In this document: positions 7,485 to 41,470 of the stretch, one piece after another
Layout of the letters: every line of letters begins with the position of its first letter
Position numbering within the stretch: the stretch's first letter is position 1
NCBI GenBank assembly: GCA_964016885.1
Contig: OZ024742.1
Span: forward strand, 375,100,001-375,164,000
Length of the DNA stretch: 64,000 nucleotides
Direction of reading: 5' to 3'
Origin: Eledone cirrhosa
Lineage: Eukaryota
Made by a program: the position numbers and the translations under genes
Notes under the pieces: model-generated
Seen by the model: only the letters and a program-made list of their open reading frames with translations
What the model was told of the DNA's origin: nothing
Databases searched by the model: none

Positions 7485-7525
7485 GTTTTTACCGGTTGCG
7501 CATTTCTAAATGCTTTTCAAAAATA
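7485..7525 (-). ncRNA. Variant or degenerate minimal type I hammerhead ribozyme in the PLE 3' region
   Basis: Minus strand: ttt-TTGAAAA-gcattt/aaatgc (stem II)-GCAA-ccgg-TA-aaaa; palindromic stem III ACCGGT; U3-A8 replaces C3-G8 and GCAA replaces GAAA. Confidence 0.45.
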
Positions 7526-8532
7526 ATTTTGAGATAGAGTGTCCGTGCTGTTTGCTCTGATCTGATTAGTTTTGGGAATTCTACCTGTTTTTATGTTAAA
7601 AAAGTGGCTCCAGCATTATTTTTGTGTTGCAAAAATGCTTGTGGTCAAAACAATTTTGATTGGTCGGTAGAGGTCATGTGAATGTAAAAAGTTGATTTTG
7701 CGCCAAGACTGTTTTTATGTTAAAATGTTAAAAAAGTGGCTCCAGCAAAAATTCATGGGAAAACAATTTTGATTGGTCGGTAGAGGTCATGTGGATAAAA
7801 AATTGGTTTTGCGCCAAGATTGAGAAATGACTCTTTCACAACAAATATGTGTGTGTGTGTGTGTATGTGTATGTGTGTGTGTGTGTGTGTGTGTATGTGT
7901 GTGTGTGTGTGTATATGTGTGTGTGTGTGTGTAGTAGTAGTAGTAAGGTGTTCGATGCTGCGACAATGGCCAGCAGCGATGTGTGTCAAATGGTTATTAA
8001 GATAAGTGTGTGTGTGTGTGTGTGTGTGTGTGTGTACATATATAGCAGAGTCATTCGAAGGTCAAAAGATATTTTTCAGCTTTTGTCTTATACGGTGAAG
8101 TGCGTGTGTGTGTGTGTGTGTGTGTGTATAAGTCTCTTTGTATGTTGATGTACGCGTGTGTATGTGTTTGTGTATATGTGTGTGTGTGTGTGTGTGTGTG
8201 TGTGTGGGTGGACCAGTATTTTTTTCCCCCTGGTAAAATGGTGTACATTATTCGATTTTTTCAGTAAAATCGGTTCTCTTAATAGAACATCTAAAATCTT
8301 AACAATAAAAGGTGTGAAATGATATTCACTATATATATACACACACATACATACATTCACTACATATATATATATATATATATACATATATACATACATA
8401 TATATGCACATATATTTTTTTGTATTGCACCATAGAGCATGTGTGTTTACGTGTGTCATTGTGTTTATATGTGGGTAGAGATGTGTGCTGATGTAGGTAT
8501 GTATGTTGACGTGTGTATGTTGTGGGTTCGTC

Positions 8533-10851
8533 TTAGGGAGAAGTGTTTAGACGGGGTCCGTATTTGTTAATGAAGTAAGATTCCTTGCTGATGCGCTGGG
8601 TGTGGGTGGCATTATCTTTAAATTTGTAGAGGGGAAAGATTCTGAAGTTGGGATGATTTTGGGCGGCACAGGTATCAATGTGTTCACTCAGTGGTATTTT
8701 CCTGTATTCCCGTATTTTAATTTGGGATCTATGGACAGTCATGCGTTGGCGGAGGCTGTTTTTGGTCTGGCCTATGTATTGTTCTCGACAACCTGAACAA
8801 GTTAATACATATATTAGATTTTCCGATGCACATGTGAAATTGTGTTTTACTATAAAACGTTGTCCATCTTTGAAATAGAATTCCGAACCCTCTATTAGGT
8901 TGATGCAAATGCCACAGTTGGGTCTATCGCATTTTTTTACTGTGGGTTTCGTTGTTGTGGTTGGCAGTACTTTGGCATGTGTTAAGATGTTTTTCATTGA
9001 CTTGGATTGTCTTTTGCTCTTTATGATATCGTGTGTTCGTAGAATTTGGTTCATTCTATGGTCCTTTTTCAATACAGGGATGTTCTGGAGGATGGTGTCA
9101 AAGGCCTCATTGTTGAGGGGGTTGTGTGTGGAGATGTATGGAAGAGCTTTTAGTTTTGGTTGATTTACTTTAGGGTGTCTAAGGTCCTGGGTACTGAGTT
9201 TTAGGGCACGTTGGATTCCATTGTCAATTAGTGATGCAGGGTAGTCCCTGCCTATGAGTGTGTTCTTTAGTTCTTGTAGCCGTAAGTAGCAGATGTTTTT
9301 ATTGGAGACTATAGTACAGATTCTCTTGGCTAAGTTGTAGGGAATATTAATTTTAACGTGTCTAGGGTGGCAAGAGTTGAAGGGGAGGTATTGCTTGGAG
9401 TCTGTGGGCTTGTAGTATATGTCTGTTTCTATTTGTTTGTTATGGATCTTAATGAGGATGTCGAGGAAGAGGAGTTGTTGATGGCTGTATTCCATCGTGA
9501 AGTTAATATTTGTGTTGAGCCCATTTATAAGGGTGTGAAATTCTTTAAGTTTTTCGATGTTTTCGTGCCAAAGGATGAAGCAGTCATCTAGATATCGCTT
9601 CCAGTTCCTTTCAATGTGTAAGTGGAGGGTGTTTCCAAATTTGTTTAGGACTTTAGTGTAGAGGGTGATTTCCAGGTATCCCATGACTAGGTTGGCATAA
9701 GTAGGGGCTGTTTTCGTTCCCATAGCGGTCCCAGATTTCTGCCTGTAGGGTTTGTTATTGAAAACGAAGTAATTGTTCTCCAAGATAAATTTGAGTCCCT
9801 CTATCACGAATTCTTTTTTGATGCGTTGTGGGAGTTCATTGTAGAAATTATCCAGCCAGAATTGGATAGCTTCTATTCCTAGGTTGTGGGGGATGTTGGA
9901 GTATAGGTTGACTACATCGAACGTCACTAGTAGGGTTTGTTCAGAAAGTGGCATATTTGGGAGGTGATTGAGCATATCTAGGTCGTCCCTTATATAGCTT
10001 TTGATGTGCTTGAGGAAGGGTTTGAGAAGTGTATCAATGAAGTTGCTAAGACGGTGCGTTTCGCAAGCGGGGCCTGCTATTATAGGTCTTAATTTGAGAT
10101 CATTGGGTGAGGGGAAATTGATGACTATGTCTGTGGCTTCCTTGCATGCCTTACTGATTGATTCGCTTTTATGTACTTTAGGGATACCGTAGAAAAGGCT
10201 GGATTTACTTGTGAAGTCTGTGATGAAGCTGAATTCCTTGTTAGTGAGTCCTTCTTTGTATTGGTTGATTAGAGTTTTTAGGTTTCTCATAATTTTCTGT
10301 TGATTGTAGTGTTCAGCCTTTTCGTAGTATGTTTCGTTTTCCAAAGTGGAGAGCGCTAAGTTGATATAGAATTCTGTCTCCATTAGGACTACTGTACTCC
10401 CTTTATCAGCCTCTTTAATTGTAATGGTTCTGTCGGTTTTTAATCTATTTAATTCTTCCCATTCTTTCTTGTTGAGGTTTGGCTTGTGTTTTTGTCTGTG
10501 CAAGTGTTGGTAAGGGAAGTTTGTGATGTGTTCACAGAATTCGTCCAGGATTTTATTTCTACCTTTTGAAGGGGTGTAATTGCTTCTATTTCTGGCTAAT
10601 GATTCATCCTCATTGTACTGGTCGAATAGTTGTTCACTAAGTCGTAACTTTCTACAGAAGTCTGTGATGTCTTCCTTCATTTCATAGTAGTTAGGACGTA
10701 GTGGGGTCGGTGTGAATTTAAGACCTTTGGAGAGTAAGTTGATAAGGTTGGGTGTTGTTTCTGCACTAGTAATATTGATAATTTTTATTACTATCGGTTT
10801 CTCCTCCCTGTCTTGTGTTATTTTGTTTGCCTGTATCTGTGTGCTGTGTCT
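8533..10851 (-). CDS. PLE reverse transcriptase + Cys-rich linker + GIY-YIG endonuclease; the frame is open upstream of the ATG at 10680
   Basis: LLSKGLKFTPTP (upstream of the ATG), IKEADKG, FYGIPKVHK, RPII, FDVVNLYSNI, GTAMG, RYLDD, FLDI, YYKPTD, CDRPNCGIC, NLIYVLTC..YIGQT..RMTVH. Confidence 0.93.
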   Translation of the reverse strand, partial: RHSTQIQANKITQDREEKPIVIKIINITSAETTPNLINLLSKGLKFTPTPLRPNYYEMKEDITDFCRKLRLSEQLFDQYNEDESLARNRSNYTPSKGRNKILDEFCEHITNFPYQHLHRQKHKPNLNKKEWEELNRLKTDRTITIKEADKGSTVVLMETEFYINLALSTLENETYYEKAEHYNQQKIMRNLKTLINQYKEGLTNKEFSFITDFTSKSSLFYGIPKVHKSESISKACKEATDIVINFPSPNDLKLRPIIAGPACETHRLSNFIDTLLKPFLKHIKSYIRDDLDMLNHLPNMPLSEQTLLVTFDVVNLYSNIPHNLGIEAIQFWLDNFYNELPQRIKKEFVIEGLKFILENNYFVFNNKPYRQKSGTAMGTKTAPTYANLVMGYLEITLYTKVLNKFGNTLHLHIERNWKRYLDDCFILWHENIEKLKEFHTLINGLNTNINFTMEYSHQQLLFLDILIKIHNKQIETDIYYKPTDSKQYLPFNSCHPRHVKINIPYNLAKRICTIVSNKNICYLRLQELKNTLIGRDYPASLIDNGIQRALKLSTQDLRHPKVNQPKLKALPYISTHNPLNNEAFDTILQNIPVLKKDHRMNQILRTHDIIKSKRQSKSMKNILTHAKVLPTTTTKPTVKKCDRPNCGICINLIEGSEFYFKDGQRFIVKHNFTCASENLIYVLTCSGCREQYIGQTKNSLRQRMTVHRSQIKIREYRKIPLSEHIDTCAAQNHPNFRIFPLYKFKDNATHTQRISKESYFINKYGPRLNTSP

Positions 10852-39900: not shown

Positions 39901-39970
39901 GTTTTATCTGATGAAAACACAAATATTATTGTTTGATGATGTTTGTTTTTTGAAATGCGCATAATAAAAT
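39901..39970 (+). ncRNA. Type I hammerhead ribozyme (right arm)
   Basis: gttttat-CTGATGA-aaacacaaatatta..tgatgtttgtttt-GAAA-tgcgca-TA-ataaaat. Confidence 0.82.
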
Positions 39971-41394
39971 ATATTGAACTCCTTTAACCATCTTTTGATC
40001 TTATATTATATATATATATATATATACGTATATATATATATATATATACATATATATATATATATATATACATATATATATATATATATATATATACATA
40101 TATATATATATATATATATATACATATATATATATATACATATATATACATATATACATATCTACATATATACATATATACATATATACATATATATACA
40201 CATATATACATATATAATACATATATATATACATATATACATATATACATATATACATGTATATATATATATATATATATATACATACATATATATATAT
40301 ATATATACATATACATATATATATATACATATATATATATATATATATATATATACATATATATATATATATATATATATATACATATAATATATATATA
40401 TATATATATACATATATATATATATATATATATACATATATATATATATATATATATATACATATATATATATATATATATATATATATATATATATATA
40501 TATTATATATATATATATATATATATATATATATATATATATATACATATATATATATATATATATATACATATATATGTATATATATATATATATATGT
40601 ATATATATATATATATATGTATGTATATATATATATATATATATATATGTATATATATATATATATATATATATATATATGTATATATATATATATATAT
40701 ATATATATATGTATATATATATATATATATATATATATATGTATATATATATATATATATATGTATATATATATATATATATATATATATGTATATATAT
40801 ATATATATATATATGTATATATATATATATATATATATGTATATATATATATATATATATATATATATATATATGTATATATATATATGTATATATATAT
40901 ATGTATATATATATATATATATATATATATATATATATATATATATATATATATATATATATATATATATGTATATATATATATATTTATATATATATAT
41001 ATGTATATATATATATATATATATATATATGTATATATATATATATTTATATATATATATATGTATATATATATATATATATATATATATATGTATATAT
41101 ATATATATATGTATATATATATATATGTATATATATATATATACATATATATATATATATATGTATATATATATATATGTATATATATATATATACATAT
41201 ATATATATATATATGTATATATATATATATGTATATATATATATATATATACATATATATATATATATATATATATATATATATATATATAAGTATTGAA
41301 ATTTCCGTTGGAAACAGAAAAGGTCATAGAAATGAAGAGTGCTCTATGTAAGTATCAGAGCAAAATTTTATGTATAAAAATCAATACAATATAA

Positions 41395-41470
41395 TTACCT
41401 CATTACCAGAGGTTTCCCGAATGAGGCGAATACGAAATAAACGACTTCATTCGTTCGTCAGACGAGGCAA
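41395..41470 (-). ncRNA. Type I hammerhead ribozyme in the inverted pLTR
   Basis: ttgcctcgt-CTGACGA-a-cgaatga/tcattcg-g-GAAA-cc-tct-gg-TA-atgaggtaa; stem I of ~9 bp. Confidence 0.85.

Follow-up and report, generated by a model that had tools for sequence, protein, structure and literature searches.

A stretch of 64,000 nucleotides of the Eledone cirrhosa genome (GenBank assembly GCA_964016885.1, contig OZ024742.1, positions 375,100,001 to 375,164,000, forward strand), here termed the window, raises the question of why so many hammerhead ribozymes lie together in one place, which elements carry them and what the ends of their copies reveal of the RNA that was copied. The window has a GC content of 27.5% in a genome of 3.0 Gb, and its positions 1-48500 consist of retroelement islands set between (TA)n repeats, which take up 23% of the sequence there, compared with 5% of a genome sample of 59 evenly spaced 10-kb tiles (590 kb). 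An earlier note on this DNA had described a dense set of type I hammerheads in which each Penelope-like insertion has a ribozyme of its own. Judged from sequence and predicted folding, the motifs are very probably type I hammerheads in the pseudo-long terminal repeat (pseudo-LTR) ends of seven families of Penelope-like element (PLE), termed A to G, and in two tandem retrozymes, R1 and R2. The cluster itself is known biology; what is new is that about half the sampled copies of one family, G, start at the ribozyme. The explanation put forward as a whole, in which hammerhead-bearing PLE and retrozyme ends insert into (TA)n from uncut RNA and the RNA of family G starts from a promoter in front of its ribozyme, is considered probable.

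The motifs stand out clearly from chance. A strict descriptor (CUGANGA, GAAA and UH joined by three helices in type I order), run on positions 1-48500, finds nine hammerheads, whilst 100 dinucleotide shuffles of the same islands give a mean of 0.05 and a maximum of 1. Their cores lie at 19321, 22088, 24966, 25484, 34098, 35401 and 41461 on the minus strand and at 34114 and 39908 on the plus strand, with a stem I of 5-10 bp in all. Type I hammerhead-shaped folds are found at all 13 of the coordinates that had been listed beforehand, and the full core (C3-A9, G12-A14, A15.1-U16.1, H17, type I order) at 11 of them, the exceptions being 28471 and 7520. The four sites outside the strict descriptor each miss it for an identifiable reason: 13042 (plus strand), which is a solo end of the family of the 22049 motif, has a single mismatch in stem I; 26105 (minus) has lost two stem II pairs in the window copy that are kept in 38 other copies; 28471 (minus) has a U4C core, common to all 32 motifs of family D in the scan; and 7520 (minus) combines a U3-A8 core with A13C and a stem I of only 3 bp, a variant whose own descriptor gives one real match compared with 0.01 in 100 shuffles. 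Two places had been called weaker, which holds for the variant core at 7485 and not for the pair at 24901/25419, where the folds are the best of the set: the site is GUC, stem I has 8 bp, and stem III is long and paired. A comparison with Rfam models, suggested beforehand as a check, was negative, with no hammerhead at gathering score over the 48.5 kb nor at E ≤ 10 on 13 short loci; a run at E ≤ 10 on the whole window gave only microRNA models lying on TA repeats and palindromes among 150 of its 620 matches, and these were rejected as artefacts.

Support for the helices comes from covariation. Twenty motifs of the lineage shared by families B and E were hand-picked from the window and from genomic loci for a common stem I and aligned over 86 columns under a structure set by the analyst. 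Pairing is found in 95.0% of 419 cells and 10 of the 21 pairs change on both sides, counts that are not probabilities because the sequences share ancestry, which shuffles ignore; stem II is 100% paired over its 6 pairs, and slid controls reach 35-60%. The A lineage covaries with a sister family, relatives of C, G and D show single compensatory changes, and R1 and R2 vary too little for covariation. The sister family of the A motif keeps the normal A13 and has compensatory changes in stems I and II. A canonical CUGANGA core was sought on the sense strand of element A and none was found; C13 recurs in a diverged subfamily of the A motif met in the flanks, so that A13C is not merely a product of choosing close copies, and the fixed U3-A8/A13C core of family A may be an active new variant. 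The proposal that every insertion has its own, unrelated ribozyme was wrong in part: the motifs at 19264 and 35340/39901 align as one lineage with a near-identical stem I, which counts against all stems being unrelated, and those at 13037 and 22049 belong to one family. Many further hammerhead families that are absent from the window occur in genomic loci and flanks, some with a stem II of 80-95 nt.

The carriers are seven PLE families, assigned by their protein motifs to the Hydra clade (B, D, E, F and G) and to the Neptune/Nematis type (A and C). In A and C a reverse transcriptase (RT) with a C-terminal GIY-YIG domain and a CX2-5CxxC linker is present, which places them in the Neptune/Nematis group as a whole. 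Element A (7319-12287, minus strand), Neptune-type, has open reading frames (ORFs) at 10818-12185 and 8533-10887 with Pfam matches to RVT_1 and GIY-YIG, GxKF, DKG and CX2-5CxxC motifs, and a short upstream pseudo-LTR at 12149-12287 that is a direct repeat of 7319-7456; its hammerhead (7487-7523, minus) has a stem II of 5-6 bp, a palindromic stem III and a predicted cut after 7490. The two ORFs of A overlap at 10818-10887 in different frames, either through a frameshift in one long ORF or as a programmed arrangement. Element C (21825-24624, minus) is 5'-truncated at 24436, where an inverted arm (24436-24624) begins, and has a 58-nt tail on one arm only; its hammerhead lies at 22049-22093 (minus) with a predicted cut after 22054, and a 28-nt word of its tail has 24,925 exact matches in the genome. 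A solo 3' end of the same family at 13024-13235 (plus), with a hammerhead at 13037-13081, is 90% identical to 21888-22106.

Families B, D, E and F resemble one another and have the defining motifs of the Hydra clade. The RWK/DKT test of the N-terminal RT region is positive in F and, with an RWR-type motif, in tandem copies of D and in one genomic locus of G (L410), the region being missing from the truncated B and E; the CxCX5C, CxxC and CxH motifs around the C-terminal GIY-YIG are present in B, E and F, and in D the C-terminal part only. Element B (19224-21680, minus) is 5'-truncated, shows CxCX5C, CxxC and CxH in its translation and has a hammerhead at 19264-19329 with a predicted cut after 19272; a 31-nt word of its tail has 15,016 exact genome matches. 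In the B lineage a conserved word, GTA(T/C)GT, precedes stem I by about 36 nt (approximately 19360-19366 in the window, minus), and in other families it adjoins stem I. It could be a splice donor, in which case the ribozyme would be intronic, or it could be a factor-binding site ahead of a TATA-like word; four B copies begin 90-95 nt above the cut site, close to it. Element D (28219-30333, minus), also 5'-truncated, has the U4C hammerhead at 28429-28475 with a predicted cut after 28433; it is similar to B, E and F by tblastn, and its tandem genomic copies extend into an ORF with RWR and DKT. Element E (35213-40004) is a 4.7-kb palindrome of 99.3% identity centred near 37655 that derives from one insertion and has a tail only on its left arm, with hammerheads at 35339-35409 (minus) and 39900-39971 (plus) placed by the descriptor and the B/E alignment; its 3' untranslated region (UTR) also holds internal repeats of 233 bp and 42 bp. 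Element F (41292-44823, plus) has an ORF in two frames ending at 44052, with RWK, DKT, YRDD, CxCX5C, CxxC and CxH motifs, and an inverted 3' arm (41292-42007) with a hammerhead at 41394-41471 (minus), predicted to be cut after 41404. Its 3' UTR is interrupted at 44823 by a fragment of a long interspersed nuclear element (LINE), and other genomic copies carry the hammerhead in sense, downstream of that UTR. The tail word first chosen for F held a private change and had only 7 exact matches, and a protein search gave 2,141 relatives with uninformative names. The position that had been claimed for the motif, in the 3' UTR and in the element's sense, holds for all six ORF-bearing insertions, the motif at 41395 lying in the inverted arm of F and in sense in its other copies.

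The two retrozymes have no coding capacity of their own. R1 (24680-25660, minus) is a tandem of a 518-bp non-coding unit with hammerheads at 24847-24974 (predicted cut after 24855) and 25365-25492, and R2 (25843-26522, minus) is a partial tandem of a 483-bp non-coding unit with one hammerhead at 26027-26110, stem II of which is broken in the window copy. The 518-bp and 483-bp spacing recurs among genomic copies, with one type I hammerhead per unit, and in loci L031-L080 no PLE ORF was found adjoining the copies, apart from separate neighbouring insertions. On this sequence evidence R1 and R2 fit the animal non-LTR retrozymes and would borrow the PLE machinery for their insertion.

Family G is represented in the window by a mini-insertion at 34043-34242 (plus), which consists of a sense copy (34107-34242) that begins at stem I, with its core at 34114 and a predicted cut after 34152, and an inverted arm (34043-34105). 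It is the end of a fifth Hydra-clade family: there are long copies with further sequence upstream, and in tandem copies the sequence leads into an ORF that has RWR and DKT. The alternative that G is a free-standing element of 136 nt was an artefact of top-match selection, as unbiased copies extend upstream into the Hydra ORF. A 38-nt tail word has 7,347 exact genome matches, against which the absence of matches in a DNA search with the G tail alone is uninformative. For maps of 5' ends, copies were picked by the sequence downstream of the cut site, which leaves their 5' ends unbiased; the G sample was drawn from the 7,347 places by taking the first 92, all on contig 1, and excluding three that share one long locus, which leaves 89, and C, F, R1 and B were mapped with 30 copies each under one shared window rule. 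Of the 89 G copies, 38 start between -47 and -36 from the cut, where stem I starts at -45, compared with 3.0 expected from the neighbouring rate. Put differently, 70 copies reach -36 and 38 of these end within those 12 nt, and of the 32 that pass beyond only 7 end in the next 100. The inverted arms behave in the same way, with 28 of 60 ending at -45 to -43, a few of the 60 being internal palindromes. Junctions differ among G copies, and the letters diagnostic of a subfamily are the same on both arms, so that these are events recurring independently. Much milder clusters at stem I were seen in C (4/30, P 0.007), F (3/30, P 0.04) and R1 (4/30, P 0.015), and none in B (2/30); these P values are rough, since some loci represent both arms of a single insertion and a number of the apparent ends in B and C are boundaries between subfamilies.

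The sequence above this edge resembles a promoter. Long G copies carry CCAAT at -84, CACCC boxes from -73 to -57, TATA at -30 and an initiator-like CCAG(A/T)TT at the edge itself, and the TATA word stands 29-33 nt above 32 of 43 parent-type G ends, diverged subfamilies included. An extra G precedes 7 of 16 truncated G ends, a letter that fold-back or arm overlap would equally supply. A look-up of RNA data sets for the G stretch listed none, which has no bearing on whether it is expressed. Read contigs of two DNA runs show a step in depth at the G edge, of about 25-60 fold and 3-10 fold, although contig depth is not copy number; a contig of a second organism shows the same G fold-back and one of a third has the TATA word at the same spacing. 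The predicted start of G RNA at the first base of stem I, driven by the upstream TATA promoter, is accordingly put forward as somewhat better than an even proposition. Under this proposal the promoter would lie in the upstream pseudo-LTR, and copying from start sites close to the cap would run off the RNA after 60-136 nt and leave solo ribozymes, in the manner of retroviral strong-stop DNA; short copies would be run-off products from the upstream pseudo-LTR and long copies would come from the downstream one. The G ORF starts about 140 nt below the cut site, and cleavage, if any, would remove the first 45 nt together with the cap and is likely to be regulatory and not needed for insertion. Ribozyme cleavage in viral 5' UTRs is reported to permit cap-independent translation (PMC13725137; published work is cited here and below for those parts of each paper that were compared), a precedent that makes a switch of translation or stability a candidate role for the G ribozyme. 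The fuller proposition, that G uses its pseudo-LTR like a true LTR, that its ribozyme, placed at the cap, acts as a switch for self-decapping and that thousands of solos are strong-stop-like run-offs of uncut RNA, is tentative and falls just short of even.

Insertion leaves its own marks in these families. In A-E the distance from the cut site to the 3' end is 48-229 nt, and two 3' ends are found per family, measured from the cut at +171/+229 in C, +15 to +28/+91 in G, +34/+112 in F, +44/+214 in D and +177/+245 in R1, typically one on each arm of a head-to-head pair. A small bulged stem lies 3-12 nt beyond the near end in G, E and F; in R1 it follows each of the two ends, and it can also be seen in B and D. 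It was looked for and not found after G+91 and F+112, nor in C and R2. That R1 shares this stem suggests that a Hydra-clade enzyme moves it. Copies read straight through the cut site, with 0-3 5' ends within 3 nt of it in five families and at most one at the cut site in C, R1, F and B. In vitro, uncut RNA is the main template of an anole PLE and two internal start sites of reverse transcription explain PLE tails (PMC11167929), and the absence of a clear pile-up at the cut matches the former, as the paired 3' ends do the latter. Insertion from uncut RNA by Penelope-type target-primed reverse transcription is thus the likely route, as far as the copies record it: the PLE enzyme would nick (TA)n and copy the RNA from two internal start sites below the ribozyme, one per strand, and the two complementary DNAs would be joined head to head.

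Several other explanations have to be set against this one. The sharp G edge could reflect a fold-driven stop, in which the copied stem I pairs back, so that the DNA end leaves the RNA and joins the other arm, or in which a 5' exonuclease trims the RNA to the fold, with no promoter involved. Such a stop is favoured by the mild clusters that C, F and R1 have at this position of the fold, by G junctions that gain letters extending the stem I pairing past the parent sequence, and by three G copies that resemble inversions joined via stem I arms. Yet the strongest stem I, that of F (10 bp), goes with a weak cluster and that of B (8 bp) with no cluster, whilst the peak of G, by far the sharpest, goes with a stem I of 6 bp; and diverged subfamilies retain a complete promoter set, spaced as in textbooks relative to the G edge. 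A fold-driven stop is unlikely. A circular template, whereby ribozyme-cut RNAs of unit length are circularised and copied round and re-ligation gives continuity over the cut, as has been put forward for PLEs and demonstrated for animal retrozymes, is a little more plausible than that, and still a minority view for the cluster at large. It is the likely reading for R1 and R2, where it may coexist with the explanation favoured here: their tandem arrays run through the cut site, their 5' ends are spread over the unit, the long stem III of R1 permits a monomer fold, and retrozymes of coral, mussel and axolotl are on record as having circular RNAs (PMC7229834). The sharp G edge, however, cannot come from a circle alone, which lacks a 5' end; no same-strand neighbouring G tails occur among 309 loci, and ribozyme mutants left insertion of the anole PLE in vitro unchanged (PMC11167929). 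A circle with a (UA)n tract was considered for G and rejected, there being no tandem G copies among the 309 loci. The edge might instead be a 3' splice site at helix I, with short copies made from spliced RNA that has a very short first exon, and indeed a T-rich tract and CAG precede it and the D. virilis Penelope intron ends at the 5' end of helix I (PMC4209133); truncated G copies nevertheless have no constant exon sequence above the edge and three diverged subfamilies have another AG just upstream, so splicing is improbable. Least credible, and very unlikely, is the view that AT-rich repeats have produced the motifs by chance or that they are dead relics with no role. It would accommodate the negative Rfam result, the variant cores at 7485 and 28429 and the broken copy at 26027, but is opposed by the shuffle controls, the covariation and the intact cores kept in dozens of identical genomic copies; a relic may be what is seen only in the A13C motif of family A.

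Some observations weigh against the promoter-based explanation and the ribozyme assignment on which it builds. The hammerhead is the minimum-energy fold for only 2 of the 13 motifs (41461 and, nearly, 34114), and most would need dimer pairing or help; in the B/E alignment, besides the shared ancestry that limits its counts, the count of further pair types (one of five measures) is not above shuffles. C, F and R1 have no TATA at -30 and still show weak clusters at stem I, so that the G peak could be due, in part or wholly, to a structure-driven stop, and the G edge can also be read as a 3' splice acceptor. The region within 3 nt of the cut contains the starts of three G copies compared with 1 expected, all joined via stem I arms, and the better of the two DNA runs may be the source of the assembly and so not independent of it.

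The density of the cluster has a simple correlate. The 59 tiles hold 36 strict motifs, or 61 per Mb, correlated with TA content, and five shuffles of them hold 0-1; bootstrapping gives 32-93 per Mb, which corresponds to roughly 180,000 strict motifs genome-wide (range about 96,000-279,000). With 9 motifs in 48.5 kb the window has about three times the density of the sample, and to that extent the set is dense as had been claimed, but per kb of TA repeat it is lower (0.8 vs 1.2), and at least nine motifs in five 10-kb tiles are met in 4% of random draws and in 23% of draws among TA-containing tiles. The density is ordinary for its TA content, and the window is therefore a TA-rich sink and not a special locus. 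(TA)n flanks the window insertions, and 85 of 89 G copies end in a TA repeat. The idea that several 'ribozyme-processed' families share one (TA)n niche, missed by annotation, stands for the niche, and Rfam and ORF annotation do both miss the motifs; processing is putative, the 5' ends showing no clear pile-up at the cut.

Other repeats share the same ground. A non-coding unit of 615 bp occurs six times (96-98% identity) between TA tracts at 14029-18461 and 31068-31692, four copies in tandem and two inverted, and contains no hammerhead even when one core mismatch is allowed. Three young fragments of one LINE 3' end, with an open frame of 239 amino acids, lie at 32566-33407, 44829-45159 and 46085-46970; the first has 44 nt from the 615-bp unit at its start, and it is the second that interrupts the 3' UTR of F. 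Related LINE ORFs with 64% amino acid identity and matches to endonuclease, RT and PHD-finger are found at 1-1803 and 4262-7147 (minus). A gap of 200 N at 48505-48704 directly precedes an array of a 25-bp satellite (48705-64000) that flips orientation at approximately 60277, and similar composition continues for about 100 kb past the window.

Much of this agrees with published systems: PLE ends with hammerheads, copies that stand alone or lie on opposite strands, insertion targeted to (TA)n and putative TATA/initiator words within pseudo-LTRs have all been described. Hydra-clade PLEs carry canonical hammerheads and insert into (TA)n, and the supplement lists a member from octopus, Hydra-1_Obim, with both (Craig et al. 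2021; PMC8557442). The families described here share with that clade the C-terminal GIY-YIG, RWK, DKT, the CxCX5C linker and CxxC/CxH, as well as a canonical hammerhead near the 3' end, (TA)n insertion, an inverted 5' arm and a one-sided tail, and the F protein resembles the printed Hydra-1_Obim protein by eye. They differ in that at least five Hydra families lie within 48 kb, with thousands of copies each, and in hammerhead sequences unlike that of Hydra-1_oBim; no start site or 5'-end pile-up is described in the parts of PMC8557442 that were compared. As ribozymes they resemble published hammerheads in a palindromic short stem III, an extra base between 9 and 10.1, the U3-A8 variant, many solos and opposite-strand pairs, and depart from them in a stem I of up to 10 bp, in 10.1-11.1 pairs that are mismatched or other than G-C, and in the family-wide U4C of D and the A13C on a U3-A8 core of A. 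U4C is known from a viroid (PMC3088659), and A13C is not among the published forms compared. The genome appears unusually rich in motifs, with about 96,000-279,000 strict ones compared with the 126,247 motifs reported for axolotl (PMC7229834), and Rfam found none at the sites tested.

R1 and R2 are like the animal non-LTR retrozymes, which are proposed to depend on PLEs, in that non-coding units follow one another in tandem and each holds a single type I hammerhead (Cervera and de la Pena 2020, PMC7229834; Li, Clavereau and Pollet 2026, bioRxiv 10.64898/2026.07.22.740005). Their unit lengths of 518 and 483 bp exceed the range of roughly 220-350 bp in the published retrozymes compared, R1 has a long monomer-type stem III, and both show PLE insertion marks directly in their two 3' ends, inverted arms and TA targets. 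The Poseidon PLE of the green anole (Frangieh et al. 2024, PMC11167929) is similar in having two internal reverse transcription start sites that make the tail, extension of both strands and an uncut main template, whilst its ribozyme overlaps the ORF start, which in G lies well below the cut. Here, the ends of the RNA template are preserved in young copies by the thousand, which show that insertion neither starts nor stops at the cut site.

A search of literature that lacked most subscription journals found no publication on a Penelope hammerhead together with a TATA or start site. The transcription start of newt satellite 2 lies just upstream of its hammerhead. If the reading of G is true, it would account for the excess of solo hammerheads that has long been noted in animal genomes, and the role of a PLE ribozyme would be that of a switch between a capped template and a cut, cap-free message, which is directly testable; G offers for the purpose a 190-nt leader that holds the predicted promoter, the cut site, two reverse transcription start sites and the start codon. 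As in D. virilis Penelope (PMC2377424) and rotifer Pen2a (PMC3846280), the latter with a putative TATA and initiator in its pseudo-LTR, transcription would start in the upstream pseudo-LTR. The fly promoter, however, is internal and TATA-less, with an intron before the ribozyme (PMC2377424), whereas in G the promoter words lie upstream and the probable start is the first base of the ribozyme, as the ends of the copies themselves support.

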